Source of the DNA: Squalus acanthias | Lineage: Eukaryota | Assembly (NCBI GenBank): GCA_030390025.1 | Contig: JASTWF010000034.1 | Location: 992,001 to 1,056,000, forward strand | Direction: 5' to 3' | DNA length: 64,000 bases | Notes under the pieces: model-generated | Seen by the model: only the letters and a program-made list of their open reading frames with translations | Databases searched by the model: none | Told to the model about the DNA's origin: nothing | Shown: positions 14,112 through 63,380 of the stretch, piece by piece | Numbering within the stretch: the stretch's first letter is position 1 | Layout: each line of letters starts with the position of its first letter | Made by a program: the position numbers and the translations under genes

Positions 14112-17100
14112 GGTCCTGTCTCTTTAAAAAGCCTGTGTGACTGGTCCTGTCTCTTTAAAAAGCCTGTGTGACTGGTCCTGTCTCTTTAAAAAGCCTGTGT
14201 GCAAAAGCCTGTCTCTTCAAAAAGCCTGTGTGACTGGTCCTGTCTCTTCAAAAAGCCTGTGTGAGTGGTTCTGTCAATTTAAAAAGCCTGTGTGACTGGT
14301 CCTGTCTCTTCAAAAAGCCTGTGTGACTGGTCCTGTCTCTTTAAAAAGCCTGTGCGACTGGCCCTGTCTCTTTAAAAAGCCTGGGTGACTGGTCCTGTCT
14401 CTTTAAAAAGCCTGTGTGAATGGTCCTGTCTCTTCAAAAAGCCTGTGTGACTGCTCCTGTATCTCTAGAAAGCCTGCGTGACTGGTCCTGTTTCTTTAAA
14501 AAGCCTGTGTGACTGGTCCTGTCTCTTTAAAAAGCCTGTGTGACTGGTTCTGTCTCTTCAAAAAGCCTGTGTGAGTGGTCATGTCTCTTCAAAAAGACTG
14601 TGTGACTGGTCCTGTTTCTTTAAAAAGCCTGTGTGAATGGTCCTGTCCCTTTAAAAATCCTGTGTGAGTGGCCCTGTCTCTTTAGAAAGCCTGTGTGACT
14701 GGTCCTGTCTCTTTAAAAAGCCAGCGTGAGTGGCCCTTTTTCATTAGAAAGCCTGTGTGAGTGGTCCAGTCTCTTTAAAAGGCCCGTGTGACTGGTCCTG
14801 TCTCTTTAGAAAGCCTGTGTGACTGGTCCTGTCTCTTTAAAAAGCTTGTGTGACTGGTCCTGTCTCTTTAAAAAGCCTGTGTGACTGGTGCTGTCTCTTT
14901 AAAAAGCCTGTGTGACTGGTGCTGTCTCTTTAAAAAGCCTGTGTGGTTGGTCCTGTCTCTTTTAAAAGCCTGTGTGAGTGGTTCTGTCAATTTAGAAAGC
15001 CTGTGTGACTGGTCCTGTCTCTTCAAAAAGCCTGTGTGACTGGTCCTGTCTCTTTAAAAAGCCTGGGTGACTGGTCCTGTTTCTTTAAAAAGCCTGTGTG
15101 AATGGTCCTGTCTCTTCAAAAAGACTGTGTGACTGGTCCTGTTTCTTTAAAAAGCCTATGTGAATGGTCCTGTCTCTTCAAAAAGCCTGGGTGACTGGTC
15201 CTGTCGCTTTAAAAAGCCTGTGTGAATGGTCCTGTCTCTTAAAAAAGACTGTGTGACTGGTCCTGTCTCTTTAAAAAGCCTGTGTGAATGGTCCTGTCTC
15301 TTAAAAAAGACAGTGTGACTGGTCCTGTCTCTTTAAAAAGCCTGGGTGACTGGTCCTGTCTCTTTAAAAAGCCTGTGTGAATGGTCCTGTCTCTTCAAAA
15401 AGCCTGTGTGACTGGTCCTGTCTCTTTAAAAAGCCTGTGTGACTGGTCCTGTCTCTTCAAAAAGCCTGTGTGAGTGGTTCTGTCAATTTAGAAAGCCTGT
15501 GTGACTGGTCCTGTCTCTTCAAAAAGCCTGTGTGACTGGTCCTGTCTCTTTAAAAAGCCTGGGTGACTGCTCCTGTCGCTTTAAAAAGCCTGTGTGAATG
15601 GTCCTGTCTCTTAAAAAAGACTGTGTGACTGGTCCTGTCTCTTCAAAAAGCCTCTGTGACTGGACCTGTCTCTTTAAAAATCCTGTGTGTCTTGTCCTGT
15701 CTCTGTAGAAAGCCTGTGTGACTGCTCCTGTGCTCTTTAAAAAACCTGTGTGACTGGTCCTGTCTCTTTAAAAAGCCAGTGTGACTGGCCCTGTCTCATT
15801 AAAAAGCCTGTGTGATTGGTCCTGTCTCTTTAAAAAGCCTGTGTGACTGGTCCTGTTTCTTTAAAAAGCCTGTGTGACTGATCCTGTCTCTTCAAAAAGC
15901 CTGTGTGACTGGACCTGTCTCTTTAAAAAGCCTGTGTGACTGCCCCTGTCTCTTCAAAAAGCCTGTGTGACTGGGCCTGTCTCTTCAAAAAGCTTGTTGA
16001 CTGATCCTTGCACTTTAAAAAGCCTGTGTGACTGGTCCTGTCTCTTTAAAAATCCTGTGTGGTTGGTCCTGTCTCTCTAAAAAGCCTGTGTGACTCGTCC
16101 TGTGTCTTTAAGAAGCCTGTGTGACTGGTCCTGTCTCTTTAAAGTCAGTGTGACTGGCCCTGTCTCTCTATTAAGCCTGTGTGACTGGACCTCTCTCTCT
16201 AAAAAACCTGTGTGACTTGTCCTGTCTCTTTAAAAAGCCTGTGTGATTGGTCCTGTCTCTTTACAAAGCCTGTGTGACTGGTCCTGTCGCACCAAAATGA
16301 CTGCGTGACTGGTCCTGTCTCTTTAAAAAGCCTGTGTGGCTGGTCCTGTTTCTTTAAAAAGCCTGTCTGACTGGTCCTGTCTCTTCAAAAAGCCTATGTG
16401 AATGGTCCGGTCTCTTCAAAAAGCCTGTGTGACTGGTCCTGTCTCTTTAAAAAGCCTGTGTGACTGATCCTGTCTCTTCAAAAAGCCTGTGTGACTGGTC
16501 CTGTCTCTTTAAAAAGCCTGTTTGACTGGACCTGTCACTTTAAAAAGCCTGTGTGAATGGTCCTGTCTCTTCAAAAAGCCTGTGTGACTGGTCCGGTCTC
16601 TTCAAAAAGGCCTGTGTGACTGGTCCTGTCTCTTTAAAAAGCCTGTGTGACTGATCCTGTCTCTTCAAAAAGCCTGTGTGACTGGTCCTGTCTCTTTAAA
16701 AAGCCTGTTTGACTGGACCTGTCACTTTAAAAAGCCTGTGTGAATGGTCCTGTCTCTTCAAAAAGCCTGTGTGACTGGTCCTGTCTCTTCGAGAAGCCTG
16801 TGTGAGTGTCCCTGTCTCTTTAGAAAGCCTGTCTGACTGGCCCTGTCTCTTTAGAAAGCCTGTGTGACTGGTCCTGCCTCAATCGAAAGCGTGTGTGACT
16901 GGTCCTGTCTCTTTAAAAAGCCTGTGTGACTGGCCCTGTCTCTTTAAAAAGCCTGTGTGACTGCCCTGTCTCTCTAAAAAGCCTGTGTGACTGGTCCTGT
17001 CTCTTTAAAAAGCCTGTGTGACTGGTCCTGTCTCTCTAAAAGACCGTTGTGACTGGACCAGTCTCTTTAAAACGCCTGTGTGACTGGTCCTGTATCTTTA

Positions 17101-20100
17101 GAAAGCCTGTGTGACTGGTCCTGTCTCTTTAAAAAGCCTGTGTGACTAGTCCTGCTTCTTTAAAAAGCCTGTGTGACTGGTCCTGCTTCTTTAAAAAGCC
17201 TGTGTGACTGGTTCTGTCTCTTCAAAAAGCCTGTGTGACTGGTCCTGTCTCTTTAGAAAGCCTGCGTGACTGATCCTTGCTCTTTAAAAAGCCTGTGTGA
17301 CTGGTCCTGTCTCTTTTAAAAGCCTGTGTGACTGGTGCTGTCTCATTAAAAAGCCTGTGTGACTGGTCCTGTCTCTTTAAAAAGCCTGTGTGACTCGTCC
17401 TGTCTCTTTAAAAAGCCTGTGTGAGTGGTTCTGTCAATTTAGAAAGCCTGTGTGACTGGTCCTGTCTCTTCAAAAAGCCTGTGTAACTGGTCCTGTCTCT
17501 TTAAAAAGCCTGGGTGACTGGTCCTGTTTCTTTAAAAAGCCTGTGTGAATGGTCCTGTCTCTTCAAAAAGACTGTGTGACTGGTCCTGTTTCTTTAAAAA
17601 GCCTATGTGAATGGTCCTGTCTCTTCAAAAAGCCTGGGTGACTGGTCCTGTCGTTTTAAAAAGCCTGTGTGAATGGTCCTGTCTCTTAAAAAAGACTGTG
17701 TGACTGGTCCTGTCTCTTTAAAAAGCCTGGGTGACTGGTCCTGTCTCTTTAAAAAGCCTGTGTGACTGGTCCTGTCTCTTCAAAAAGCCTGTGTGACTGG
17801 TCCTGTTTCTTTAAAAAGCCTGTGTGAATGGTCCTGTCTCTTCAAAAGACTGTGTGACTGGTCCTGTTTCTTTAAAAAGCCTGTGTGAATGGTCCTGTCT
17901 CTTCAAAAAGCCTGTGTGAGTGGTTCTGTCAATTTAGAAAGCCTGTGTGAATGGTCCTGTCTCTTAAAAAAGACTGTGTTACTGGTCCTGTCTCTTTAAA
18001 AAGCCTGTGTGACTGGTCCTGGCTCTTCAAAAAGCCTGTGTGACTGGTCCTGTCTCTTTAAAATGCCTATGTGACTGGTCCTGTCTCTTCAAAAAGCCTC
18101 TGTGACTGGACCTGTCTCTTTAAAAATCCTGTGTGTCTTGTCATGTCTCTGTAGAAAGCCTGTGTGACTGCTCCTGTGTCTTTAAAAAACCTTTTGTGAC
18201 TGGTCCTGTCTCTTTAAAAAGCCAGTGTGAGTGGCCCTGTTTCATTAAAAAGCCTGTGTGATTGGTCCTGTCTCTTTAAAAAGCCTGTGTGACTGGTCCT
18301 GTTTCTTTAAAAAGCCTGTGTGACTGATCCTGTCTCTTCAAAAAGCCTGTGTGACTGGACCTGTCTCTTTAAAAAGCCTGTGTGACTGCCCCTGTCTCTT
18401 CAAAAAGCCTGTGTGACTGGGCCTGTCTCTTCAAAAAGCTTGTTGACTGATCCTTGCACTTTAAAAAGCCTGTGTGACTGGTCCTGTCTCTTTAAAAATC
18501 CTGTGTGGTTGGTCCTGTCTCTCTAAAAAGCCTGTGTGACTCGTCCTGTGTCTTTAAGAAGCCTGTGTGACTGGTCCTGTCTCTTTAAAGTCAGTGTGAC
18601 TGGCCCTGTCTCTCTATTAAGCCTGTGTGACTGGACCTATCTCTCTAAAAAACCTGTGTGACTGGTCCTGTCTCTTTAAAAAGCCTGTGTGATTGGTCCT
18701 GTCTCTTTACAAAGCCTGTGTGACTGGTCCTGTCGCACCAAAATGACTGCGTGACTGGTCCTGTCTCTTTAAAAAGCCTGTGTGACTGGACCTGTCTCTT
18801 TAAAAAGCCTGTGTGACTGCCCCTGTCTCTTCAAAAAGCCTATGTGAATGGTCCGGTCTCTTCAAAAAGCCTGTGTGACTGGTCCTGTCTCTTTAAAAAG
18901 CCTGTGTGACTGATCCTGTCTCTTCAAAAAGCCTGTGTGACTGGTCCTGTCTCTTTAAAAAGCCTGTTTGACTGGACCTGTCACTTTAAAAAGCCTGTGT
19001 GAATGGTCCTGTCTCTTCAAAAAGCCTGTGTGACTGGTCCTGTCTCTTCGAGAAGCCTGTGTGAGTGTCCCTGTCTCTTTAGAAAGCCTGTCTGACTGGC
19101 CCTGTCTCTTTAGAAAGCCTGTGTGACTGGTCCTGCCTCAATCGAAAGCGTGTGTGACTGGTCCTGTCTCTTTAAAAAGCCTGTGTGACTGGCCCTGTCT
19201 CTTTAAAAAGCCTGTGTGACTGCCCTGTCTCTCTAAAAAGCCTGTGTGACTGGTCCTGTCTCTTTAAAAAGCCTGTGTGACTGGACCAGTCTCTTTAAAA
19301 CGCCTGTGTGACTGGTCCTGTCTCTTTAGAAAGCCTGTGTGACTGGTCCTGTCTCTTTAAAAAGCCTGTGTGACTCGTCCTGTCTCTTTAAAAAGCCTGT
19401 GTGACTGGTCCTGCTTCTTTAAAAAGCCTGTGTGACTGGTCCTGTCTCTTTAAAAATCCTGTGTGACTGATACTGTCTCTTTAGAAAGCCTGCGTGACTG
19501 ATCCTTGCTCTTTAAAAAGCCTGTGTGACTGGTCCTGTCTCTTTTAAAAGCCTGTGTGACTGGTGCTGTCTCATTAAAAAGCCTGTGTGACTGGTCCTGT
19601 CTCTTTAAAAAGCCTGTGTGACTCGTCCTGTCTCTTTAAAAAGCCTGTGTGACTGGTCCTATCTCTTTAAAAAGCCTGTGTGACTGGTCCTGTCTTTTTA
19701 AAAAGCCTGTGTGACTGGTCCTGTCTCTTTAAAAAGCCTGTGTGACTGGTCCTGTCTTTTTAAAAAGCCTGTGTGACTGGTCCTGTCTTTTTAAAAAGCC
19801 TGTGTGACTGGTCCTGTCTCTTCAAAAAGCCTGTGTGACTGGTCCTGTCTGTTTAAAAAGCCTGCGTGACTGGTCCTGTCTCTTTAAAAAGCCTGTGTGA
19901 CTGGTCCTGTCTCTTCAAAAATCCTGTGTGAGTGGCCCTGTCTCTTTAGAAAGCCTGTGTAACTGGTCACGTCTCTTTAAAAAAACTGTGTGACTGGACC
20001 TGTCTCTTCAAAAAGCCTGTGTGTGTGGTCCTGTCTCTTTAAAAAGCCTGTGTGACTGGTCCTGTCTCTTTAACAAGCCTGTGTGACTGGTCCTGTCTCT

Positions 20101-23100
20101 TTAAAAAGCCTGTGTGACTGGTCCTGTCCCTTTAAAAATCCTGCGTGACTGGTCCTGTCTCTCTAAAAAGCCGTTGTGACTGGACCTGTCTCTTTAAAAA
20201 GCCTGTGTGACTGGTCCTGTCTCTTTAAAAGCCTGTGTGACTGGCCCTGTCTCTTTTAAAAGCCTGTGTGACTGGCCTGTCTCTCTAAAAAGCCTGTGTG
20301 ACTGGTGCTGTCTCTTTAAAAAGCCTGTGTGTTTGGTCCTGTCTCTTTAAAAAGCCTGTGTGACTGGTCCTGTCTCTTTAAAAAGCCTGGGTGACTGGAC
20401 CTGTCTCTTTAAAAAGCCTGGGTGACTGGTCCTGTCTCTGCAAAAAGCCTGTGTGACTGGTCCTGTCTCTTTAAAAAGCCTGGGTGACTGGACCTGTCTC
20501 TTAAAATAGCCTGTGTGACTGGTCCTGTCTCTTTAAAAAGCCTGGGTGACTGGTCCTGTCTCTGCAAAAAGCCTGTGTGAATGGCCCTGTTTCTTTAAAA
20601 AGCCTGTGTGACTGGACCTGTCTCTTTAAAAAGCCCGTGTGACTGGTCTTGTCTCTTCAAAAAGCCTGTGTGACTGGTCCTGTCTCTTTAAAAAGCCTGT
20701 GTACTGGTCCTGTCTCTTCAAAAAGACTGTGTGTCTTGTCATGTCTCTATAGAAAGCCTGTGTGACTGGTCCTGTCTCTTTAAAAAGCCTGTGTCACTGG
20801 TCCTGTCTCTTTAAAAAGCCTGTGTGACTGGCCCTGTCTCTTTAAAAAGCCTGTCTGAGCGGCCCTGTCTCTTCAGAAAGCCTGTGTGACTGGTCCTGTC
20901 TATATAGAAAGCGTGTGTGACTGGTCCTGTCCCTTTAAAAAGCCTTTTGTGACTGGTCCTGTCTCTTTAAAAAGCCTGTGTGAGTGGCCCTGTCGCTTCA
21001 AAAAGACTGTGTGACTGATCCTGTCTCATCAAAAAGCCTGTGTGACTGGCCCTGTCTCTTTTAAAAGTCTGTGTGACTCGCCCTGTCTCTCCAAAAAGCC
21101 TGAGTGACTGGTGCTGTCTCATTAAAAAGCCTGTGTGACTGGTCCTGTCTCTTTAAAAAGCCTGTGTGACTCGTCCTGTCTCATCAAAAAGCCTGTGTGA
21201 CTGGTCCTATCTCTTTAAAAAGCCTGTGTGACTGGTCCTGTCTTTTTAAAAAGCCTGTGTGACTGGTCCTGTCTCTTCAAAAAGCCTGTGTGACTGGTCC
21301 TGTCTCTTTAAAAAGCCTGCGTGACTGGTCCTGTCTCTTTAAAAAGCCTGTGTGACTGGTCCTGTCTCTTCAAAAATCCTGTGTGAGTGGCCCTGTCTCT
21401 TTAGAAAGCCTGTGTAACTGGTCATGTCTCTTTAAAAAACCTGTGTGACTGGACCTGTCTCTTCAAAAAGCCTGTGTGAGTGGTCCTGTCTCTTTAAAAA
21501 GCCTGTGTGACTGGTCCTGTCTCTTTAACAAGCCTGTGTGACTGGTCCTGTCTCTTTAAAAGCCAGTGTGACTGGTCCTGTCTCTTTAAAAAGCCTGTGT
21601 GACTGGTCCTGTCCCTTTAAAAATCCTGCGTGACTGGTCCTGTCTCTTTAAAAAGCCTGTGTGACTGGCCCTGTCCCTTTAAAAAGCCGTTGTGACTGAC
21701 CCTGTCTCTTTAGAAAGCCTGTGTGACTGGTCCTGGCTCTTTAAAAAGCCTGTGTGACTGGCCCTGTCTCTTTTAAAAGCCTGTGTGACTGGTCCTGTCT
21801 CTTTAAAAAGCCTGTGTGAATGGTCCTGTCTCTATAGAAAGCATGTGTGACTGGTCCTGTCCCTTTAAAAAGCCTTTTGTGACTGGTCCTGTCTCTTGAA
21901 AAAGCCTGTGTGACTGGTCCTGTCTCTTTAAAAAGCATGTGTGACTGGTCCTGTCTCTCTAAAAAGCCGTTGTGACTGGTGCTGTCTCTTTTAAAAGCCT
22001 GTGTGACTGGCCCTGTCTCTTTTAAAAGCCTGTGTGACTGGCCTGTCTCTCTAAAAAGCCTGTGTGACTGGTGCTGTCTCTTTAAAAAGCCTGTGTGTTT
22101 GGTCCTGTCTCATTAAAAAGCCTGTGTGACTGGTCCTGTCTCTTTACAAAGCCTGGGTGACTGGACCTGTCTCTTTAAAAAGCCTGGGTGACTGGTCCTG
22201 TCTCTGCAAAAAGCCTGTGTGACTGGTCCTGTCTCTTTAAAAAGCCTGGGTGACTGGACCTGTCTCTTAAAATAGCCTGTGTGACTGGTCCTGTCTCTTT
22301 AAAAAGCCTGGGTGACTGGTCCTGTCTCTGCAAAAAGCCTGTGTGAATGGTCCTGTTTCTTTAAAAAGCCTGTGTGACTGGACCTGTCTCTTTAAAAAGC
22401 CCGTGTGACTGGTCTTGTCTCTTCAAAAAGCCTGTGTGACTGGTCCTGTCTCTTTAAAAAGCCTGTGTACTGGTCCGGTCTCTTCAAAAAGACTGTGTGT
22501 CTTGTCATGTCTCTATAGAAAGCCTGTGTGACTGGTCCTGTCTCTTTAAAAAGCCTGTGTCACTGGTCCTGTCTCTTTAAAAAGCCTGTGTGACTGGCCC
22601 TGTCCCTTTAAAAAGCCGTTGTGACTGGCCCTGTCTCTTTAAAAAGCCTGTGTGACTGGCCCTGTCCCTTTAAAAAGCCGTTGTGACTGGCCCTGTCTCT
22701 TTAGAAAGCATGTGTGACTGGTCCTGGCTCTTTAAAAAGCCTGTGTGACTGGCCCTGTCTCTTTTAAAAGCCTGTGTGACTGGTCCTGTCTCTTTAAAAA
22801 GCCTGTGTGAATGGTCCTGTCTCTTTAGAAAGCCTGTGTGACTGGTCCTGTCTCTTTTAAAAGCCTGTGTGACTGCCCTGTCTCTCGAAAAAGCCTGTGT
22901 GACTGGTGCTGTCTCTCTAAAAGACCGTTGTGACTGGACCTGTCTATTTAAAAAGCCTGTGTGAATGGTCCTTTCTCTTCAAAAAGCCTGTGTGACTGGT
23001 CCTGCATCTTCAGAAAGCCGGCGTGAATTGTCCTGTTTCTTGAATAAGCCTGTGCGAATGGTCCTGTCTCTTCAAAAAGCTTGTGTGAATGGTCCTGTCT

Positions 23101-25796
23101 CTTTAAAAAGCCTGTGTGACTGGTCCTGTCTCTTTAAAAAGCCTGTGTGACTGGTCCTGTCTCTTTAAAAAGCCTGTGTGAATGGTCCTGCCTCTTCAAA
23201 AAGCCTCTGTGACTGGTCCTGCTTTTTTAAAAAGCCTGTGTGACTGGTCCTGTCTCTTTAAGAAGCCTGTGTTACTCGTCCTGTCTCTTTAAAAAGCCTG
23301 TGTGACTGGTCCTGTCTCTTTAAAAAGCCTGGGTGACTGGTGCTGTCTCTTTTAAAAGCCTGTGTGAATGGTCCTGTCTCTTTAAAAAGCCTGTGTGACT
23401 GGTCCTGTCTCTTTAAAAAGCCTGGGTGACTGGACCTGTCTCTTTAAAAAGCCTGGGTGACTGGTCCTGTCTCTGCAAAAAGCCTGTGTGACTGGTCCTG
23501 TCTCTTTAAAAAGCCTGGGTGACTGGACCTGTCTCTTCAAAAAGCCTGTGTGACTGGTCCTGTCTCTTTAAAAAGCCTGTGTACTGGTCCTGTCTCTTTA
23601 AAAAGCCTGTGTGACTGGCCCTGTCTCTTTAAAAAGCCTGTCTGAGAGGCCCTGTCTCTTCAGAAAGCCTGTGTGACTGGTCCTGTCTATATAGAAAGCG
23701 TGTGTGACTGGTCCTGTCCCTTTAAAAAGCCTTTTGTGACTGGTCCTGTCTCTTTAAAAAGCCTGTGTGAGTGGCCCTGTCGCTTCAAAAAGACTGTGTG
23801 ACTGATCCTGTCTCATCAAAAAGCCTGTGTGACTGGCCCTGTCTCTTTTAAAAGTCTGTGTGACTGGCCCTGTCTCTCCAAAAAGCCTGAGTGACTGGTG
23901 CTGTCTCATTAAAAAGCCTGTGTGACTGGCCCTGTCTCTTTTAAAAGTCTATGTGACTGGCCCTGTCTCTCCAAAAAGCCTGTGTGACTGGTCCTGTCTC
24001 ATCAAAAAGCCTGTGTGAGTGGTCCTGTCTCTTCAAAAAGCCTGTGTGACTGGTCCTGTCTCTTTAAAAAGCCTGTGTAACTGGTCCTGTCTCTTCAAAA
24101 AGCCTGTGTGACTGGTCCTGTCTCTTCAAAAAGCCTGTGTGACTGGTCCTGTCTCTCTAGAAAGCCGTTGTGACTGGACCTGTCTCTCTGAAAAGCCTGT
24201 GTGGCTGGTCCTGTCTCTTTAAAAAGCCTGTGTGACTGGTCCTGTCTCTTTAAAAAGCCTGTGTGACTGGTCCTGTCTCTGTAAAAAGCCGGTGTGACTG
24301 GTCCTGTCTCTTTAAAAAGCCTGTGTGACTGGTCCTGTCTCTTCAAAAAGCCTGTGTGACGGGCCCTGTCTCATAAGAAAGCCTGTGTGACTGGTCCTTG
24401 CTCATTAAAAAGGCTGCATGACTGGACCTGTCTCTTTAACAAGCCTGTGTGACTGGTCCTGTCTCTTCAAAAGCCTGTGTGACTGGTCCTGTCTTTTTAA
24501 CAGCCTGTGTGAATTGTCCTGTCTTTTTAAAAAGCCTGTGTGACTGGTCCTGTGTCTTCAAAAAGCCTGTGTGACGGGCCCTGTCTCTTTAAAAAGCCTG
24601 TGTGACTGGTCCAGTCTCTTTAAAAGCCAGTGTGACTGGTCCTGTCTCTTTGAAAAGCATGTGTGACTGGTCCTGTCCCTTTAAAAATCCTGCGTGACTG
24701 GTCCTGTCTCTTTAAAAAGCCTGTGTGACTGGCCCTGTCCCTTTAAAAAGCCGTTGTGACTGGCCCTGTCTCTTTAGAAAGCATGTGTGACTGGTCCTGG
24801 CTCTTTTAAAAGCCTGTGTGACTGGCCCTGTCTCTTTTAAAAGCCTGTGTGACTGGTCCTGTCTCTTTAAAAAGCCTGTGTGAATGGTCCTGTCTCTTTA
24901 GAAAGCCTGTGTGACTGGTCCTGTCTCTATAGAAAGCGTGTGTGACTGGTCCTGTCCCTTTAAAAAGCCTTTTGTGACTGGTCCTGTCTCTTTAAAAATC
25001 CTGTGTGACTGGTCCTGTCTCTTTAGAAAGCCTGTGTGACTGGTCCTGGCTCTTTTAAAAGCCTGTATGACTGCCCTGTCTCTCGAAAAAGCCTCTGTGA
25101 CTGGTGCTGTCTCTCTAAAAGACCGTTGTGACTGGACCTGTCTCTTTAAAAAGCCTGTGTGAATGGTCCTTTCTCTTCAAAAAGCCTGTAGTGACTGGTC
25201 CTGCATCTTCAGAAAGCCGGCTTGACTTGTCCTGTTTCTTGAATAAGCCTGTGCGAATGGTCCTGTCTCTTCAAAAAGCCTGTGTGACTGGTCCTGTCTC
25301 TTTAAAAAGCCTGTGTGAATGGTCCTGCCTCTTCAAAAAGCCTCTGTGACTGGTCCTGCTTTTTTAAAAAGCCTGTGTGACTGGTCCTGTCTCTTTAAGA
25401 AGCCTGTGTTACTCGTCCTGTCTCTTTAAAAAGCCTGTGTGACTGGTCCTGTCTCTTTAAAAAGCCTGGGTGACTGGTGCTGTCTCTTTTAAAAGCCTGT
25501 GTGAATGGTCCTGTCTCTATAAAAAGCCTGTGTGACTGGTCCTGTCTCTTTAGAAAGCCTGTGTGACTGCTCCTGTCTCTTTAGAAAGCCTGTGTGACTG
25601 GTCCTGTCTCTTTAGAAAGCCTGTGTGACTGGTCCTGTCTCTTCAAAAAGCCTGTGTGACTGATCCTGTCTCTTCAAAATGCCTGTGTGACTGATCCTGT
25701 CTCTTTTAAAAGCCTGTGTGACTGGTCCTGTCTCTTTAAAAAGCCTGTGTGACTGGTCCTGTCTCTCTAAAAAGCCTGCGTGACTGGTCCTGTCTC
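14112..25796 (+). repeat. 31-bp satellite (AAAAAGCCTGTGTGACTGGTCCTGTCTCTTT), left arm, intronic
   Basis: Direct periodicity (GCCTG at 14131 and 14162) over about 11.7 kb. Confidence 0.98.
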
Positions 25797-26386
25797 CAGA
25801 GGTGCTGTGAGGTGCTGTGAGTATTTGAACTCACTTTCGCGGGCTTTTCTTCACAGGCTGTTGTCGGGAGCGAGGAGACCTGAGGTGCTGTGAGTATTTG
25901 AACTCACTTTCGCGGGCTTTTCTTCACAGGCTGTTGTCGGGAGCGACGAGACCGGAAGCGGACCAGGTGGGAAGCACCCAGGTGAACGGCATTTAAGGAG
26001 GGTGGTGGCTTAAACCCGAGAACCCCCACCCGCCCTCCTCCTCTAACCTACTAGTCTTTTAGCAGTCTAAAAACAGAGGTCACAAATTTTTTGGTCTCAG
26101 TTTCTTTTCAGCAGGGCAGGACGGTTACCGGGAGGAGCGGGAAGTCGGCGTAGGACCAAGGGGACACAAGACCGGGAAGTCAGCGAAAGACCAGGGAGGT
26201 AAGACTAACTGGTAAGTACTTTCCTCAAACCTTCCTAGAAAGTAAAACTAAAACTAGTGGGATTTGGTTAGTTTAAAAAGGAATAAGAGGAGTACAGTAT
26301 ACATTGGTCTAAGTAAGCTTCGGGAAAACAAAAGTCAATAAATAAACTAAAACTAGAAAATTAAAAAGTAATATAAGGGTTAAGTC

Positions 26387-27334
26387 ATGGCAGTAGAGCT
26401 CGGACCTGTGTCATGCTCCTCCTGTAACATGTGGGAAATCAGGGACGCTTCCTGTGTCCCTGACAACCATGTGTGCGGGAAGTGTGTCCAGCTGCAGCTC
26501 ATGTGGGACCGCATGACGGCCCTTGAGCTGCGGATGGACTCACTTTGGAGCATCCACGATTCTGAGAGGGTTGTGGATAGCACATTTAGTGAGTTGGTCA
26601 CACCGCAGGTTAAGGCCAGCGTAGATAGTACATGGGTGACCAAAAGGCAGAGCAAGGGCAGGAAGGTAGTGCAGAAATCCCCTGGGGTTGTCTCCCTTAG
26701 CAACAGGTTCACCGCCTTAGGTGCTGTTGTCGGGGGGGATGACTCATCGGGGGAAGGCACCAGCAGCCAGGCTCATGGCACCATGACTGGCTCTGTTGCA
26801 AAGAAGGGAGGGAAAAAGAGTGGCAGGGCTATAGTAATAGGGGATTCGATTGTAAGGGGAATAGATAGGGGTTTCTGTGGTCGCGACCGAGACTCCAGGA
26901 TGGTATGTTGCCTCCCTGGTGCAAGGGTCAAGGATGTCTCGGCGTGGGTGCAGAACATTCTGGAGGGGGAGGGGGAACAGCCATTTGTCGTGATACATGT
27001 TGGTACCAACGACGTAGCTAAAAAAAGGGAAGAGGTCCTACAAGTAGAATTTAGGGAGTTAGGAGCCAAGCTAAAAAGTAGGACCTCGAAGGTAGTAATC
27101 TCTGGATTACTACCAGTGCCACGTGCTAGTAAGAGTACAGAGAACAGGATAGTTAGGCTAAATACGTGGCTTGAGCAGTGGTGTAAGAGGGAGGGTTTTA
27201 AATTTTTGAGGCATTGGAACCAGTTTTGTGGTAGGTGTGACCTATACAAAAGGGACGGTCTACACCTGTGCAAAGATGGAACTGATGTTCTCGGGGTAAT
27301 TTTTGATAAAGCAGTTCGGGAGCATTTAAACTAG
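26387..27334 (+). CDS. CR1 ORF1p (Cys zinc finger, coiled coil, SGNH/GDSL esterase-like domain), 315 aa
   Basis: CSSC...CGKC, heptad LQLMWDRMTALELRMDSL, esterase blocks GDSIVR, PGA, GTND and DGLH. Confidence 0.93.
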   Translation: MAVELGPVSCSSCNMWEIRDASCVPDNHVCGKCVQLQLMWDRMTALELRMDSLWSIHDSERVVDSTFSELVTPQVKASVDSTWVTKRQSKGRKVVQKSPGVVSLSNRFTALGAVVGGDDSSGEGTSSQAHGTMTGSVAKKGGKKSGRAIVIGDSIVRGIDRGFCGRDRDSRMVCCLPGARVKDVSAWVQNILEGEGEQPFVVIHVGTNDVAKKREEVLQVEFRELGAKLKSRTSKVVISGLLPVPRASKSTENRIVRLNTWLEQWCKREGFKFLRHWNQFCGRCDLYKRDGLHLCKDGTDVLGVIFDKAVREHLN

Positions 27335-30276
27335 TATGGCAGGGGGCTAGAAACCTATGTAGTGAAATAGAGGAAAGTGAAAGGCAGACAGAAATAAATG
27401 GTAAAAGGGTGAGGAACAAAAAACAAAGGGCCAAACTAATTCATAAAAAATGTGAGCATAAAAAAAGCCTGAGGGTTTTATACCTTAATGCGAGAAGCAT
27501 CAGGAACAAGGTAGATGAATTAGCTGTGGAAATAGAGGTTAATAATTATGATCTAATTGGGATTACGGAAACATGGTTGCAGGGTGAGCAGGGCTGGGAG
27601 CTTAACATACAGGGGTATTCAGTATTTAGGAAGGATCGACAAAAAAGAAAGGGAGGAGGGGTAGCATTGCTGGTAAAAGAGGGGATAAATGCAATTGAAA
27701 GGAAGGATATTAACTCAGTTAATACAGAATCTATATGGGTGGAGCTAAGAAATAGCGAGGGGCGAAAAACATTAATAGGAGTGGTATATAGGCCTCCAAA
27801 TAGTAAAATAGAGGTTGGGGAGGGCATCACGAGGGAAATTAGAGAAGCGTGCAATAAGAGCACAGCTGTCATCATAGGTGACTTTAACTTACATATAGAT
27901 TGGACTAGCCTAATCAGTAAAAATAATGAGGAGGAGGAATTCCTTGAGTGTTTAAGGGATGGTTATCTGGATCAATATGTCGAGGAACCAACTCGGGAAC
28001 AGGCTATATTGGACTGGGTACTGTGCAATGAGAAGGGACTAATTGGTAATCTTGTTGTACGGGGACCCTTGGGTCAGAGCGATCATAACATGATCGATTT
28101 CTCACTCGAAATGGAGAGCGAAGAAATTGACTCCGAGACTAAGGTCCTGAATTTAAACAAGGGGAATTATGATGCCATTAGACGGGAACTGAGGAGGTCT
28201 GATTGGACAACGTTCCTGGGAGGACTGGAGGTAGATAAACAATGGCAAGCATTTAAAGATAGAATGACAAAATTGCAAAAATTGTTTATACCAATCTGGC
28301 ATAAAAGGAAATCTAAAAAGGTGACTCAACCGTGGATAACAGGGGAAATTAGAGACAGCATAAAATCCAAAGATAGGGCGTATAAAATAGCCAAAAAAAG
28401 CGCCAGAGCGGAAGATTGGGAACAGTTTAAGATAGAGCAAAGGAGGACAAAGGGCTTAATCAAGAGGGGCAAAATAGCTTACGAAAGCAAGCTGGCGGAA
28501 AATATAAAAACTAACTCCAAAAGCTTTTATAAGTATATCAAGAGGAAAAGACTGGTGAAAACCAAAGTTGGTCCATTGCAGTCAGATACGGGGGAATATA
28601 TAACGGGAAATAAGGAAATGGCAGACCAACTAAATGCATACTTTGGGTCAGTCTTTACGAAGGAAGACACAAAAAACCTCCCTGGGATATCGGGAAAAAT
28701 AGGGACATTGGCAAAGGAGGAACTGACGCAAATCAATATCTCTAAGGATATGGTGTTAAGGAAGCTAAAGGGATTGAAGGCGGACAAATCCCCAGGGCCT
28801 GATAACATGCATCCTAGGGTACTGAAGGAGGTGGCCCTAGAGATAGCGGATGCACTAAGTATGATTTTTCAGAATTCATTAGACTCGGGAACAGTGCCCA
28901 TGGATTGGAGGGTAGCTAACGTTACCCCACTATTCAAAAAGGGGGGTAGGGAAAAAGCAGGTAATTACAGACCTGTAAGCCTTACATCAGTTGTGGGCAA
29001 AATGCTGGAGTCCATCATTAAGGATGAAATAGCGGAGCACTTAGCAAATGGGGACAGGATAGGACAGAGTCAACATGGATTTACAAAGGGTAAATCGTGC
29101 TTGACTAATCTATTGGAATTTTTTGAGGGAGTAACTGGTAAAATAGATGGGGGAGAGCCAGTAGATGTGGTGTACCTGGACTTCCAAAAGGCCTTCGACA
29201 AGGTCCCACATAAAAGATTAGCATGGAAAATTGAAGCTCATGGGATAAAGGGGAAAGTATTGACGTGGATAGAGAACTGGCTGTCAGATAGAAAACAGAG
29301 AGTTGGAATAAACGGCTCATTTTCTGAATGGCAGGCAGTAACAAGTGGGGTACCACAGGGATCTGTCCTGGGTCCCCAGCTGTTCACAATTTACATTAAT
29401 GACCTGGATCAGGGAGTCGGATGCAGCATTTCCAAATTTGCAGACGACACTAAACTAGGAGGGGGGGTGGGCTCAGAGGAGGAGACCAGGAAGCTCCAGA
29501 GCGATTTGGACAGACTGGGTGATTGGGCGGATAAATGGCAGATGCACTATAATGTGGACAAGTGCGAAGTTATCCACCTTGGGTGCAGGAACGGGAGGGC
29601 AAATTATTATTTAAATGGCAATAAATTGGGAGAGGGGGAAGTACAGAGAGACCTGGGTGTTCTTGTACACCAGTCACTGAAGGCGAGCATGCAGGTGCAA
29701 CAGGCGGTCAAGAAGGCAAACGGTATGCTGGCCTTCATAGCAAAAGGGTTGGAATACAGGAACAGGGATACCTTGCTGCAGCTGTACAGGGCACTGGTGA
29801 GACCACACCTCGAGTACTGTGTACAGTTTTGGTCGCCTCATCTGAGGAAAGATGTTCTTGCCATGGAGGGGGTGCAGCGGCGATTCACCAGGCTGATACC
29901 AGGAATGGCGGGATTGACCTATGAGGAGAGACTATGTAGTTTAGGGATGTACACACTGGAGTTTAGAAGATTGAGAGGGGACCTCATAGAAGTGTATAAA
30001 ATTCTGACAGGTCTAGACAGACTAGATGCAGAAGGAATGTTTCCCTTGGCGGGTGAGAACAGAACTAGAGGACATAATTTAAGGATAAGGGCTAAACCAT
30101 TTAGGACAGAAATGAGGGGGAATTTCTTCACTCAGAGGGTGGTGAACCTGTGGAACTCATTGCCACAGAGGGCAGTGTACGCCAGCTCATTAAATATATT
30201 TAAGAGGGAATTAGATATATTTCTACAGGCAAAAGGGGTTAAGGGTTACGGAGAGAAGGCGGGGACGGGATACTGA
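27325..30276 (+). CDS. CR1 ORF2p (APE endonuclease plus reverse transcriptase); start undefined, frame open from 27310, probably entered by -1 frameshift
   Basis: YLNARS, ITETW, YRPP, GDFN, SDH endonuclease motifs; YLDFQKAFD, GVPQGSVLGP, FADD RT motifs; no stops; the ORF-track start at 27409 is a GTG. Confidence 0.93.
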   Translation, partial: FKLVWQGARNLCSEIEESERQTEINGKRVRNKKQRAKLIHKKCEHKKSLRVLYLNARSIRNKVDELAVEIEVNNYDLIGITETWLQGEQGWELNIQGYSVFRKDRQKRKGGGVALLVKEGINAIERKDINSVNTESIWVELRNSEGRKTLIGVVYRPPNSKIEVGEGITREIREACNKSTAVIIGDFNLHIDWTSLISKNNEEEEFLECLRDGYLDQYVEEPTREQAILDWVLCNEKGLIGNLVVRGPLGQSDHNMIDFSLEMESEEIDSETKVLNLNKGNYDAIRRELRRSDWTTFLGGLEVDKQWQAFKDRMTKLQKLFIPIWHKRKSKKVTQPWITGEIRDSIKSKDRAYKIAKKSARAEDWEQFKIEQRRTKGLIKRGKIAYESKLAENIKTNSKSFYKYIKRKRLVKTKVGPLQSDTGEYITGNKEMADQLNAYFGSVFTKEDTKNLPGISGKIGTLAKEELTQINISKDMVLRKLKGLKADKSPGPDNMHPRVLKEVALEIADALSMIFQNSLDSGTVPMDWRVANVTPLFKKGGREKAGNYRPVSLTSVVGKMLESIIKDEIAEHLANGDRIGQSQHGFTKGKSCLTNLLEFFEGVTGKIDGGEPVDVVYLDFQKAFDKVPHKRLAWKIEAHGIKGKVLTWIENWLSDRKQRVGINGSFSEWQAVTSGVPQGSVLGPQLFTIYINDLDQGVGCSISKFADDTKLGGGVGSEEETRKLQSDLDRLGDWADKWQMHYNVDKCEVIHLGCRNGRANYYLNGNKLGEGEVQRDLGVLVHQSLKASMQVQQAVKKANGMLAFIAKGLEYRNRDTLLQLYRALVRPHLEYCVQFWSPHLRKDVLAMEGVQRRFTRLIPGMAGLTYEERLCSLGMYTLEFRRLRGDLIEVYKILTGLDRLDAEGMFPLAGENRTRGHNLRIRAKPFRTEMRGNFFTQRVVNLWNSLPQRAVYASSLNIFKRELDIFLQAKGVKGYGEKAGTGY

Positions 30277-30369
30277 ATTGGAGGATCAGCCATGATCTCA
30301 TTAAATGGCGGAGCAGGCTCGAAGGGCCGGATGGCCTACTCCTGCTCCTATCTTCTATGTATCTATGTA

Positions 30370-33300
30370 TTAGAAAGCCTGTGTGACTGGTCCTGTCTCT
30401 TCAAAAAGCCTGTGTGACTGGTCCTGTCTCTTCAAACGCCTGTGTGACTGGTCCTGTCTCTTTAAAAAGCCTGTGTGACTGGTCCTGTCTTTTTAAAAAG
30501 CCTGTGTGACTCGTCCTGTCTCTTTAAAAAGCCTGTGTGACTGATCCTATCTTTTTAAAAAGCCTGTGTGACTGGTCCTGTCTCTTTAAAAATCCTGTCT
30601 GAGCGGTCCTGTCTCTTCAGAAAGCCTGTGTGACTGGTCCTGTCTATATAGAAAGCGTGTGTGACTGGTCCTGTCCCTTTAAAAAGCCTTTTGTGACTGG
30701 TCCTGTCTCTTTAAAAAGCCTGTGTGAGTGGCTCTGTCTCTTTTAAAAGCCTGTGTGACTGCCCTGTCTCTTTAAAAAGCCTGTGTGACTGATCCTTGCT
30801 CTTTAAAAAGCCTGTCTGACTGGTCCTGTCTCTTTAAAAAGCCTGTGTGACTGGCCCTGTCTCTCTAAAAAGCCTGTGTGACTGGTCCTGTCTCTCTAAA
30901 TAGCCGTTGTGACTGGTCCTGTCTCTTTAAAAAGCCTGTGTGACTGCTCCTGTCTCTTTAAAAAGCCTGTGTGACTGATCCTGTCTCTTCAAAAGCCTGT
31001 GTGACTGCTCCTGTCTCTTTAAAAAGCCTGTGTGACTGATCCTGTCTCTTCAAAAGCCTGTGTGACTGGACCTGTCTCTTTCAAAAGCCTGTGTGACCGA
31101 TCCTGTCTCTATAAATAGCCGTTGTGACTGGACCTGTCTCTTCAAAAAGCCTGTGTGACTGATCCTGTCTCTTCAAAAGACTGTGTGACAGGTCCTGTCT
31201 CTTTAAAAAGCCTGTGTGACTGGTCCTGTCTCTTAAAAAGCCTGTGTGACTGGTCCTGTCTCTTCAAAAAGCCTGTGTGGCTGATCCTGTCTCTTCAAAA
31301 AGCCTGTGTGACTGGTCCTGTCTCTTCAAAAATCCTGTGTGACTGGTCCTGTCTCTTCAAAAAGCCTGTGTGACTGGTCCTATCTCTTCAAAAATCCTGT
31401 GTGACTGGTCATGTCTCTTTAAAAAGCCTGCGTGACTGGTGCTGTATCTTTAAAAAGCCTGTGTGACTGGTCCTGTCTCTTTAAAAAGCCTGTGTGACTT
31501 TTACTGTCTCTTCAAAAAGCCTGTGTGGTTGGTCCTGTCTCTTTAAAAAGCCTGCGTGACTGGTCCTGTCTCTTTAGAAAGCCTGTGTGACTGGTCCTGT
31601 CTCTTTAAAAAGCCTGTGTGACTGGTCCTGTCTCTTTAAAAAGCCTGTGTGACTGGTCCTGTCTCTTTAAAAAGCCTGTGTGACTGGTCCTGTCTCTTTA
31701 AAAAGCCGGTTTGACTGGTCTTGTCTCTCTAAAAATACGTTGTGACTGGACCTGTCTCTTTAAAAACCCTGTGTGACCCGTCCTGTCTCTTTAAAAAGCC
31801 ATGTGCGACTGGACCTGTCTCTTTAAAAAGCCTGTGTGACTGATCCTGTCTTTTTAAAAAGCCTGTGTGACTGGTGCTGTATCTTTAAAAAGCCTGTGTG
31901 ACTGGTCCTGTCTCTTTAAAAGCCTGTGTGACTGGTCCTGTCTCTTAAAAGCCTGTGTGACTGGTCCTGTCTCTTTAAAAAGCCTGTGTGACTGGTCCTG
32001 TCTCTTTAAAAAGCCTGTGTGACTGGTCCTGTCTCTTCAAAAAGCCTGTGTGACTGGTCCTGTCTCTTTAAAAAGCCTGTGTGACTGGTCCTGTCTCTTT
32101 AAAAAGCCTGTGTGACTGGTCCTGTCTCTTTAAAAAGCCTGTGTGACTGGTCCTGTCTCTTAAAAAGCCTGTGTGACTGGTCCTGTCTCTTTAAAAGCCT
32201 GTGTGACTGGTCCTGTCTCTTTAAAAGCCTGTGTGACTGGTCCTGTCTCTTTAAAAATCCTGTGTGACTGGTCCTGTCTCTTCAAAAAGCCTGTGTGACT
32301 GGTCCTGTCTCTTCAAAAAGCCTGTGTGACTGGTCCTGTCTCTTTAAAAAGCCTGTGTGACTGGTCCTGTATCTTTAAAAAGCCTGTGTGACTGGTCCTG
32401 TCTTTTTAAAAAGCCTGTGTGACTGGTCCTGTCTCTTTAAAAATCCTGTGTGACTGATCCTATCTTTTTAAAAAGCCTGTGTGACTGGTCCTGTCTCTTT
32501 AAAAATCCTGTCTGAGCGGTCCTGTCTCTTCAGAAAGCCTGTGTGACTGGTCCTGTCTCTTTAAAAAGCCTTTTGTGACTGGTCCTGTCTCTTTAAAAAG
32601 CCTGTGTGAGTGGCTCTGTCTCTTTTAAAAGCCTGTGTGACTGACCTGTCCCTTTAAAAAGCCTGTGTGACTGATCCTTGCTCTTTAAAAAGCCTGTCTG
32701 ACTGGTCCTGTCTCTTTAAAAAGCCTGTGTGACTGGCCCTGTCTCTCTAAAAACCCTGTGTGACTGGTCCTGTCTCTCTAAATAGCCGTTGTGACTGCTC
32801 CTGTCTCTTTAAAAAGCCTGTGTGACTGCTCCTGTCTCTTTTAAAAAGCCTGTGTGACTGATCCTGTCTCTTCAAAAGCCTGTGTGACTGCTCCTGTCTC
32901 TTTAAAAAGCCTGTGTGACTGATCCTGTCTCTTCAAAAGCCTGTGTGACTGGACCTGTCTCTTTCAAAAGCCTGTGTGACTGGTCCTGTCTCTATAAATA
33001 GCCGTTGTGACTGGACCTGTCTCTTCAAAAAGCCTATGTGACTGATCCTGTCTCTTCAAAAGACTGTGTGACAGGTCCTGTCTCTTTAAAAAGCCTGTGT
33101 GACTCGTCCTGTCTCTTCAAAAAGCCTGTATGACTGATCCTGTCTCTTCAAAAAGCATGTGTGGCTGATCCTGTCTCTTCAAAAAGCCTGTGTGACTGGT
33201 CCTGTCTCTTCAAAAATCCTGTGTGACTGGTCCTATCTCTTGAAAAATCCTGTGTGACTGGTCATGTCTCTTTAAAAAGCCTGCGTGACTGGTGCTGTAT

Positions 33301-33600
33301 CTTTAAAAAGCCTGTGTGGTTGGTCCTGTCTCTTTAAAAAGCCTGTGTGACCGAACCTGTCTCTCTAAAAAGCCTGTGTGGCTGGTCCTGTCTCTTTAAA
33401 AAGCCTGTGTGACTGGTCCTGTCTCTTTAAAAAGCCTGTGTGACTGGCCCTGTCTCTTTAAAAAGCCTGTGTGACTGGCCCTGTCTCTTTAAAAAGCCTG
33501 TGTGACTGGTCCTGCCTCTTTATAAAGCCTGTGTGACTGGTCCTGTCTCTTTAGAAAGCCTGTGTGACTGGTCCTGTCTCTCTAAAAAGCCTGTGTGAAT
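30370..33600 (+). repeat. 31-bp satellite, right arm
   Basis: Same unit as 14112-25796, resuming in register after the CR1 tail. Confidence 0.97.
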
Positions 33601-39703: not shown

Positions 39704-41380
39704 GAGCAAAGTGATGAAAGGTGCCGTCGACAGTGCTATTATGTGGCACTTACTCACTAATAACCTTCTCACCGATGCCCAGTTTGAGTTCCGGCAGGAC
39801 CACTCGGCTCCAGACCTCATTACAGCCTTGGTCCAAACATGGACAAAGGAGCTGAATTTCAGTGGTGAGGAGAGATTGACTGCCCTTGACATCAAGGCAG
39901 CATTGGACTGAGTGCGGCATCAAGGAGCCCCAGTAAAATTGTGTCAATGGAAAGCAGGGGGAAAACTCTCCACTGGCTCGAGTCATACCCGGCACAACGG
40001 AAGATGGTTGTGGTTTTTGGAGGTCAATCATCACAGCTCCAGGACATCGCTGCAGCAGTACATCAGGGCAGTGTCCTCGGCCCAACCATCTTCAGCTATT
40101 TCATCAATGACCTTCCCTCTATCCTATGGTCAGAAGTGGGGATGTTCGCTGATAATTGCTCAGTATTCAGTTCTATTCACAACTCCTCAGATAATGAAGC
40201 AGTCCATGCCCGCATGCAGCAAGACCTGGATGACATTCAGCCTTGGGTTGATAAGTGGCAAGTAATAATGACACCAAACAAGTGCCAGGCAATGACAATC
40301 TCCAACAAGAGCCACATCCCCTTGACATTCAATGGGATTACCATCGCCAAATCCGTCACCATCAGTATCCTGGGGGTTTCCATTGACCAGAACCTTAACT
40401 GGACCAGCCACATAAATACTGTGGCTAAAACAGCAGGTCAGAGGCTGGGTATTCTGCGGCGATTGTCTCACCTCCTGACTCTCCAAATCCTTTCCACCAT
40501 CTACAAGGCACAAGTCAGGAGTGTGATGGAATACTCTACACTTGTCTGGATGAGTGCAGCTCCAAAAACACTCAAGAAGCTCGACATCATCCAGGACAAA
40601 GAAGCCCACTTGATTGGTAGCCCATTCATCACCATAAAGGGGTAGAGAGGGTGGTAAAAAGGGAGGGTGTCGCGGTATTGATTAAAGAAACTATTACAGC
40701 TGTGAGGAGAGATGACATGTTGGAGCGATCATTAAACGAGGCCATATGGGTCGAATGGAAAAACAAAAAAGGGGCGACCACATTGCTGGGAGTGTACTAT
40801 AGACCCCCAAACAGTGAGAGGGAGATAGAAGAGCAAATATGTCGACACATTTCTGAGAAGTGCAAAAACTATAGGGCAGTAGTAGTAGGAGATTTGAACT
40901 ACCCCAATATTAACTGGGATAAGCTGGGTTTGTTTTCCTTGGAACAGAAGAGGCCGACTCCTGCTCCTACTTCTTATGTTATGTTCTTAAACATTCACTC
41001 CCTCCACCAGCGTAGCACCGTGGCTGCAGTGTGTACCATCTACAAGATGCACTGCAGCAACTTGCCAAGGTTTCATCGGCAGTACCTCCCAAACATGCAG
41101 CCTCTACCACCTAGATGGACAAGGGCAGCAGGAGCATGGGAGCACCATCACCTGTAACTTCCCCTCCAAGTCACACACCATCCTGACTTGGAAGTATATC
41201 ACCATTCCTTCATTGTCGCTGTGTCAAAATCCTGCAACTCCCTCCATAACAGCACTGTGGGAGAGCCTTTCCATCACCGACTGCAGCGGTTCACCACCGC
41301 ATTCTCAAGTGCAACTAGGGATGGGCAATAAATGCAAGGCGTGCCAGCGATGACCACAGCCCATGAATGAATAAAAAAGA
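39704..41380 (+). mobile_element. Second non-LTR LINE family (CR1/L2 group), RT plus 3' end; likely partner of the SINE
   Basis: ALDIKAALD, VHQGSVLGPTIF, MFADN, YKAQVRSVMEY; tail AGGGATGGGCAATAAATG...CCCATGAATGAATAAAAAA shared with the SINE. Confidence 0.85.
40639..40990 (+). mobile_element. Short internally deleted CR1 nested in the LINE above
   Basis: Endonuclease segment (GVAVLIKE, YYRPPN, GDLNYP) joined to KLGLFSLEQ and then the CR1 tail. Confidence 0.75.
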
Positions 41381-41429
41381 AAAACAAAATAGATGGCAGA
41401 TGAAATTCCATAAATTGCATAGATTTTAG

Positions 41430-42882
41430 AACGTTTGCCGCGGATTGGAATGTAGCAAATGTAACCCCAATATTTAAGAAAGGAGGGAGAGAGAAAACGG
41501 GGAACTACAGACCAGTTTTCCTGACATCAGTAGTCGGGAAAATGATAAAATATATTAAGGACGTAGTAACAGGGCACTTAGAAAATTATAATAGGATTGG
41601 GCAGAGTCAACACGGATTTATGAAAGGGAAATCGTGTTTGACAAATTTGTTAGAGTTTTATGAGGTTGTAACTAGCGGAACAGATAAGGGGGAGACAGTA
41701 GATGTGGTGGATTTGGATTTTCAGAAGACATTCGATAAGGGGCCGCACAAGAGGTTATTAAACAAAATGGGATTGGGGCTAATATTCTAGCATGGGTTGA
41801 GGATTGGTTAACGGACAGAAAACAGAGAATAGCAATAAACGAGTCATTTTCGGTTTGGCAGGCTGTAACTAGTGGGGTACCGCAAGAATCAGTGTTTGGG
41901 CCACAGCTATTTACGATATATATCAATGATTTGGATGAGGGGACCAAATGCAATATATCCAAGTTTGCTGATGATAAAAAGCTGGGTGGGAATGTAAGTT
42001 GTGAGGAGGATGCAAGGAGGCTTCAAGGGGATATAGACAGGCTAAGTGAGTGGGCAAGAACATGGCAAATGGAATATAATGTGGAGAAATGTGCAGTTAG
42101 TAAAAATAGTGAAGCAAGGTATGTTTTAAATGTTGAGAGATTGGGAAATGTTGGTGTTCAGAGGGACCTGGGTGTCCTTGTACATGAATCACTGAAAGGT
42201 AACATGCAGGTACAGCAAATAATTAGGAAAGCAAATGGTATGTTGGCCTTTATTACAAGAGGATTTGAATATAAGAGTAAAGACGTCTTACTGCAATTAT
42301 ATAAGGCCCTGGTGAGACCACACCTGGAGTATTGTGTACAGTTTTGGTCTCCTTACCTAAGGAAGGATATAATTGCCAAAGAGGGATCGCAACGAAGGTT
42401 CACCAGACTGGTTCCTGGGATGGGGGGATTGTCCGATGAGAACAGATTGAGTAGACTAGGCCTATGTTCTCTAGAATTTAGAAGAATGAGAGGTAATCTC
42501 ATGGAAATATATAAAATTCTTACAGGGCTTAACAGGGTAGATGCAGTGAGGATGTTTCCCCTGGCTCGGGAGTCTAGAACAAGGGGTCACAGTCTCAGCA
42601 AAAGACGTCGGCCAGTTAGGTCCGAGATGAGGAGAAAATTCTTCACTCGGAGGGTGGGGAATCTTTGCAATTCTCTACCCCAGAGGGCTGTGGATGCTCA
42701 GTCGTTGAGTATATTCAAGACAGAGATTGAAAGATTTTTGAATATTAAGGGAATCAAGGGATATGGGGATAGTTGAGGAAAGTGCACTTGAGGTAGAAGA
42801 TCAGCCATGACCTTATTGAATAGCGGAGCAGGATCGATGGGCCAAATGGCCTACTCCTGCTCCTATTTCATATGTTCCTATT
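41430..42882 (+). mobile_element. 5'-truncated decayed CR1 (RT to tail)
   Basis: ORFs 41542-41790 and 41892-42776 match ORF2, including FADD. Confidence 0.93.
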
Positions 42883-63144: not shown

Positions 63145-63380
63145 AATACGGGTTAGAAACAGAGTACAGCTGTCTTTAACTGGCCCCATCAAACGTTCCC
63201 AGGACAGCTAGAACAGGGATTGGATAAAGAGTGAAGCTCCCGCTACACTGTCCCATCAAATACTCCCAGGGCAGGTACAGCACGGGTTAGATACAGAGTA
63301 AAGCTTCCTCTACACTCTCCCATCAAACACTCCCAGGGCAGGTACAGCATGGGTTAGATACAAAGTAAAGCTCCCTCTAA
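63145..63380 (-). repeat. Short block of the 67-bp satellite
   Basis: Same unit and orientation as 47445-50125. Confidence 0.88.

Follow-up and report, generated by a model that had tools for sequence, protein, structure and literature searches.

The 64,000-nucleotide stretch of the Squalus acanthias genome analysed here (contig JASTWF010000034.1, positions 992,001 to 1,056,000, forward strand; hereafter the window) contains an intact CR1 retrotransposon, a long interspersed element (LINE) of the esterase type whose two open reading frames (ORFs) meet at a slippery heptamer. On sequence grounds, this junction is a real and deeply conserved recoding-type signal in a dominant vertebrate LINE. 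It is likely that -1 ribosomal frameshifting at the junction yields a 1296-aa fusion of the ORF1 esterase with the ORF2 endonuclease and reverse transcriptase (RT), since a phased heptamer with an adjacent stop codon is followed by an ORF2 in the -1 frame that lacks an AUG upstream of the endonuclease core. In most vertebrates the dominant retrotransposons belong to the CR1 group, which makes up 22-34% of shark and ray genomes (PMC13343379).

The final codons of ORF1 are CAT TTA AAC TAG, which place an X_XXY_YYZ heptamer in the ORF1 phase directly before the stop. The downstream frame is -1 relative to ORF1, open from the heptamer, and overlaps ORF1 by 25 nt. In this frame ATG first occurs at codon 261 (28090), immediately past the SDH motif, and the ATG at 27336 lies in the third frame, where it opens four sense codons only. 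The initial annotation had described this layout (heptamer phase, adjacent stop, overlap and both ATGs), and all of its coordinates hold. On both strands of the window, 22 of 5986 stop triplets are directly preceded by any canonical heptamer and two by exactly TTTAAAC. Given Leu-Asn, the chance of this heptamer from background codon use is 0.011 per lineage.

The family is young: all 150 scored matches are identical across the last 82 ORF1 residues, and the 30 retrieved sister copies share 97-99.6% identity with the window element. All 30 retain the heptamer and stop, and the -1 frame is open to the endonuclease motif in 29 of them, none of which has an AUG before that motif. A wider set from the same genome was obtained by protein searches with the window ORF1 tail and five ORF1 tails of divergent relatives, taking 30 of 150 scored loci each. 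This gave 180 loci, of which 179 were anchored on the DGxH motif, located 26 codons upstream and independent of the heptamer (one, without an anchor, was dropped). TTTAAAC followed by TAA or TAG was found at the predicted place in 162 of the anchored loci (TAA 88, TAG 74); single-copy substitutions or indel shifts were found in the remaining 17. One family (L233-L234) has a 3' untranslated region (UTR) unlike that of the window element and the same junction motif.

A metagenome scan with peptide patterns located far upstream recovered 34 loci. Eleven extend to a vertebrate-type ORF1 end, with TTTAAAC-TAG in nine, GTTAAAC-TAG in one and a decayed TTTAAAC-AAG in one. Two distant esterase loci (L062 and L063) have an ORF1 end without the heptamer, and the other 21 stop short of the ORF1 end or have no recognisable one. 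No relatives were found among viral contigs; 18 weak genome-contig matches (22-29% identity, bacterial records), of which two were inspected, were not used. At the protein level, a C-terminal LN is present in all 36 CR1-type ORF1 proteins with a full tail and in none of 35 teleost L2-type and other relatives, the other 49 of the 120 proteins lacking a scorable tail. The supplement of PMC13343379, in which a search of entries of 400 characters reveals positives only, contains the 10-mer formed by heptamer and stop at least 12 times, at least 11 of them at apparent ORF1 ends. The rows showing it are coded tortoise, crocodilians, bowfin, frog, chimaera, coelacanth, sawfish and dogfish, and in these consensus rows G-rich sequence stands behind the heptamer and stop (PMC13343379). 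The TA directly after the heptamer is invariant, while the identity of the stop varies, with TAG in the window, TAA in other families and TGA in none.

Codon usage at the junction was compared in 21 real copies, one per lineage (11 from the same genome and 10 from the metagenome scan), with a median pairwise identity of 34% over the last 80 ORF1 codons. The terminal Leu is encoded by TTA in 20/20 (one copy has Val) versus 16/178 other Leu codons, and the terminal Asn by AAC in 20/21 versus 32/75 background Asn codons. The first base of the heptamer, which closes codons for seven different residues (Gly, Ala, Asp, His, Ser, Thr and Cys), is T in 19 copies and G in two; a single lone copy (L205) accounts for one of these G bases and for the sole AAT. 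On a tree of 20 copies, no silent change was required for the Leu codon, one for the Asn codon and two changes for the first base, and the stop switched between TAG and TAA four times. All of 20 conserved control columns changed codons, requiring between one and eight silent changes (mean 4.6, none 0).

Because the silent sites of Leu and Asn and the first base are held while the control columns vary, these comparisons indicate that selection acts on the heptamer nucleotides, which are conserved beyond protein constraint. This would include the first base, which is relevant only to P-site re-pairing in tandem slippage. A C-terminal LN maintained as a protein motif fails to account for the fixed codons. 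The conservation of the phased heptamer and stop, proposed in the initial annotation as a check, extends to synonymous positions, both in shark families and in distant vertebrate-type CR1, which favours its interpretation.

In the proposed mechanism, a fraction of the ribosomes would slip back one base at U_UUA_AAC, enter ORF2 and make a ...HLN/LVWQG... fusion, and the remaining ribosomes would terminate at the stop and release the ORF1 protein. Slippage is expected to be tandem, involving the Leu and Asn tRNAs, because the first base stays U or, like that of equine arteritis virus, G; a shift at the stop alone would not require this. The predicted product of tandem slippage is ...REHLN/LVWQGAR, with 315+981 = 1296 aa. 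The trans-frame fusion of esterase, endonuclease and RT that had been predicted initially is retained, without the Lys that was placed before LVWQGAR. The pause would probably come from the adjacent stop together with an unstructured G-run 11 nt downstream, which would act in the mRNA entry channel of the ribosome or via a bound protein. As in Gag-Pol, the outcome would be a fixed low ORF2:ORF1 ratio, with the RT tethered to ORF1 protein multimers.

The role of the G-run as a stimulator is a hypothesis that draws on its position and conservation. Among 20 representatives, G is found at positions 11 to 15 after the heptamer in 19, 18, 19, 20 and 17, respectively, and a weaker second G-run occupies positions 18-20. 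Position 14, the silent base of a Gly codon, is G in 19/19 versus 65/212 in the ORF2 background, and position 11, a mostly silent base of Lys or Gln, is G in 18/19 versus 138/257. This silent-site conservation lends support to an early guess that the G tract matters. Two viral stimulators resemble it. The protein-bound CCCANCUCC motif of PRRSV lies 11 nt 3' of its shift site, the same position at which the CR1 G-run begins; the likeness is of spacing only, the viral motif being C-rich and the CR1 run G-rich. The unstructured 3' stimulator of Semliki Forest virus is, like the CR1 G-run, a short single-stranded motif at a fixed distance.

Other stimulators were considered and discarded. Pairing of the G-run with the 3' UTR, as in barley yellow dwarf virus, involved the second-best partner in the window and was not a common top partner over 28 elements. 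An upstream hairpin was strong in the window (z -3.0) and in two others, with a mean z of -0.45 over 20 representatives, and was not conserved.

A broader reading can be offered more tentatively, with somewhat less than even confidence. The esterase-type CR1 elements of jawed vertebrates would make a Gag-Pol-like fusion via one ancient -1 signal, whose stimulator would be the adjacent stop plus the G-run at position 11 and not RNA structure. Either the ribosome entry channel or a protein that binds G would read this stimulator, which might give the host or the element a switch on transposition.

Several observations weigh against frameshifting. In classical -1 signals, a structure lies 5-9 nt downstream (PMC3542737). 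No stem-loop or pseudoknot was found at this distance, and the signal is not classed as structure-stimulated: downstream folding gave z +0.66 in the window and mean z values of -0.21 and -0.03 in sets of 20 and 19 representatives, with no shared stem. No conserved hairpin or pseudoknot stem 1 was detected among the representatives, in agreement with the initial impression that no strong pseudoknot follows the heptamer. A two-tier G-quadruplex pattern was present in only 7/20 representatives and was rejected, and no long-range partner common to the 28 elements was found (two further regions gave no junction). The absence of TGA among the stops is unexplained by the frameshift model. The representatives share ancestry, and the queries used for the same-genome set ended in LN, which biases the residues recovered, not the codons, the preceding base or the stop. 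As for novelty, -1 shifting in a LINE has precedent in Dictyostelium TRE5-A and TRE3-A. In one shark family (L173-L202), stop and start overlap as TAATG in the frame of ORF2, atop the heptamer, in 16/19 open copies; two other shark families have an AUG at codons 14-57, before the endonuclease, and 4/8 bird-like loci have an AUG at codon 3.

The TAATG overlap and the AUG at codon 3 favour termination-reinitiation, in which ribosomes would stop at the ORF1 end and restart at a nearby AUG or non-AUG codon, the heptamer and G-run being the reinitiation signal. There is precedent in the UAAUG of SART1 and the AUG-independent initiation of L1 (PMC3894237, PMC2881922, PMC5009743), the stops are UAA and UAG only, and the window has in-frame CTG/GTG codons at 27409 (GTG) and 27469. 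Reinitiation is the main rival to frameshifting, but an unlikely one. It has no need of a phased X_XXY_YYZ heptamer, or of a -1 frame that every intact lineage leaves open from the heptamer onward. No start codon is common to the lineages, as the initial annotation had anticipated: the second codon in the -1 frame reads GTA, ATT, ATG, ACT, GTT, GCT, ATA, GAA, GGT, GAC or GAT, depending on the lineage, and the out-of-frame ATG of the window is missing from 15/15 copies of one family. An in-frame AUG at or near the stop was found in 0/29 open copies of the window family, and three families lack an AUG before the endonuclease in 29/29, 27/28 and 5/5 of their open copies, and all three keep the heptamer. 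Where a family has an AUG, reinitiation may act alongside frameshifting. The family with the TAATG overlap is SART1-like in this respect and could use both routes.

A search for longer proteins, directed at naturally fused families, gave six, none of them a full CR1-type fusion, which is weak evidence. A single genomic copy (L214) runs from ORF1 in frame into ORF2 via ...GFKLVCQG, and two gene models of a ray (P0035 and P0122) show the same read-through.

A second alternative, which we regard as very improbable, is that TTTAAACTA..GGGGG serves a different purpose at the DNA or RNA level (as a TATA-like box for an ORF2-only transcript, or a packaging or protein-binding site) and stands at the junction by chance. 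TTTAAA is short and AT-rich, the TA after the heptamer does not vary, and the same 10-mer occurs in the 5' UTR of the published consensus SquAca_CR1-3. Such an element would leave ORF2 without an AUG, and no intact lineage departs from the ORF1 phase or from the -1 relation to ORF2, even though linker length ranges over 31-86 codons.

The least credible alternative is splicing that joins a 5' UTR donor at 26211 to an acceptor lying at the ORF1 stop or close to it, giving an ORF2-only mRNA. The donor itself is genuine: in runs X7 and X8, contigs leave the element exactly at 26211 into outside sequence. The window stop is a CTAG, and at 27348 one X3 contig passes into other sequence. Against an acceptor argues the variation of the stop between TAG and TAA, with TAA and not AG in 88/179 same-genome loci, and the upstream sequence is only 41% pyrimidine. 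The 5' UTR has no ATG. A spliced leader for ORF2, which the initial annotation had named as an alternative, was sought in seven RNA-type runs of the 20 listed, where no joint into ORF2 was found and contigs of five runs span the junction unspliced; these runs were only guessed to be RNA, and contigs drop rare forms and cannot reveal transcript starts. The 5' UTR part 26100-26211 is flanked by splice sites, and RNA-type contigs of several runs enter near 26100 or 26127 and exit at 26211 into unrelated sequence, which suggests that it serves as an exon in host transcripts.

Frameshifting at the CR1 junction would have close counterparts in viruses. In coronaviruses and arteriviruses (1a-1b) and in retroviral gag-pol, an upstream structural-type ORF is joined in the same phase to a polymerase ORF. 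Infectious bronchitis virus uses U_UUA_AAC, identical to the CR1 heptamer, and equine arteritis virus has a G_UUA variant. The CR1 site differs from these in that no downstream pseudoknot or hairpin was found and in its host, a retrotransposon without long terminal repeats (non-LTR). For mammalian ribosomes, U_UUA_AAC is listed as one of the heptamers most prone to shifting, and G_UU(A) occurs as a natural variant (PMC5009743). Among non-LTR elements with an APE-type endonuclease, a review legend states that -1 frameshifting is required for ORF2 of TRE5-A and TRE3-A (PMC5911963). Their likeness to CR1 lies in this stated shift, as their ORF1 is unrelated and their host is an amoeba.

Reviews regard the way in which LINEs translate ORF2 as unsettled, and the worked-out cases are of reinitiation (PMC3894237, PMC2881922, PMC5009743). 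The 2016 frameshifting review includes HeT-A, TART and L1 among non-LTR elements, and CR1 is not named in its available sections (PMC5009743). L1 and SART1 resemble CR1 in having a bicistronic RNA, and their ORF2 depends on ORF1 translation. They differ in that reinitiation gives a free ORF2 protein, with a spacer or UAAUG in place of a CR1-type -1 overlap with a slippery site. CR1 papers of 1997 reportedly noted ORFs that lie close together or overlap, and an earlier passing proposal of frameshifting is possible. None was found for CR1 in the literature searched, a scope outside which lie the first accounts of CR1 from chicken and turtle as well as Kapitonov and Jurka 2003, Kojima 2005 and Alisch 2006. 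One file of the PMC4316615 supplement was searched and gave no matches. Published esterase-type vertebrate CR1 (PMC13343379; ZfL2-1 esterase 4c1b, PMC3905857) have in common with the present element an esterase ORF1, an ORF2 with APE and RT, and a tail of short repeats. Unlike the fusion proposed here, these accounts treat ORF2 as a separate protein, and the terms 'frameshift' and 'overlap' do not occur in the main text of PMC13343379.

If frameshifting is confirmed, the CR1 enzyme would be redefined as an esterase-endonuclease-RT fusion, and the annotation of ORF2 starts and the design of CR1 expression constructs would change. The junction would also provide a compact natural frameshift cassette of 30 nt with an apparently unstructured stimulator.

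Table 1. Positions of the CR1 element and its parts in the window.
Feature	Position	Strand	Description
CR1 LINE	25797-30369	+	Intact, esterase-type, young; inserted into 31-bp minisatellite
5' UTR of CR1	25797-26386	+	5' end set by sister copies and minisatellite end
ORF1, 315 aa	26387-27334	+	ATG 26387; SGNH/GDSL esterase; tail ...HLN stop
ORF2 frame	27310-30276	+	-1 frame; linker, APE endonuclease, reverse transcriptase; PF03372, PF14529, PF00078
Slippery heptamer T_TTA_AAC	27325-27331	+	In ORF1 phase
ORF1 stop	27332-27334	+	TAG, immediately 3' of heptamer
G-run	27342-27346	+	Begins 11 nt after heptamer; candidate unstructured stimulator
3' UTR	30277-30369	+	Stem-loop and short terminal repeats, no poly(A)

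The element has the organization of esterase-type CR1, with an SGNH esterase in ORF1, an APE endonuclease followed by an RT in ORF2, and a tail with a 3' stem-loop and short tandem repeats without poly(A). ORF1 contains N-terminal Cys pairs and GDS, GTND and DGLH motifs, and matches PF13472 (E 1.7e-10) and the ORF1 esterase structure PDB 4c1b (E 9.3e-29). Its nearest relatives are shark, ray and reptile proteins, the nearest named ones being from sharks and rays, and teleost L2-type ORF1 is farther off. One database record from a 4-kb contig, labelled an SGNH hydrolase of Pseudomonas aeruginosa (P0009), is a CR1 ORF1 57% identical to that of the window and is probably host contamination. The ORF2 frame has 988 codons from stop to stop. 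The 5' UTR contains a 73-bp duplication at 25808-25953 and the splice donor at 26211/26212, and the 3' UTR folds with z -2.08 (6/200 shuffles equally good).

The host genome is of 3.7 Gb. The minisatellite interrupted by the CR1 insertion spans 14112-33598 of the window with ~480 copies. Elsewhere in the window, decayed CR1/L2-like LINE fragments were found at 39890-42776, 44529-45128, 53318-54091 and 63358-63819, and a 309-aa open frame at 11012-11941 on the minus strand, with several hydrophobic stretches and a DRF motif, resembles by eye a single-exon G-protein-coupled receptor.

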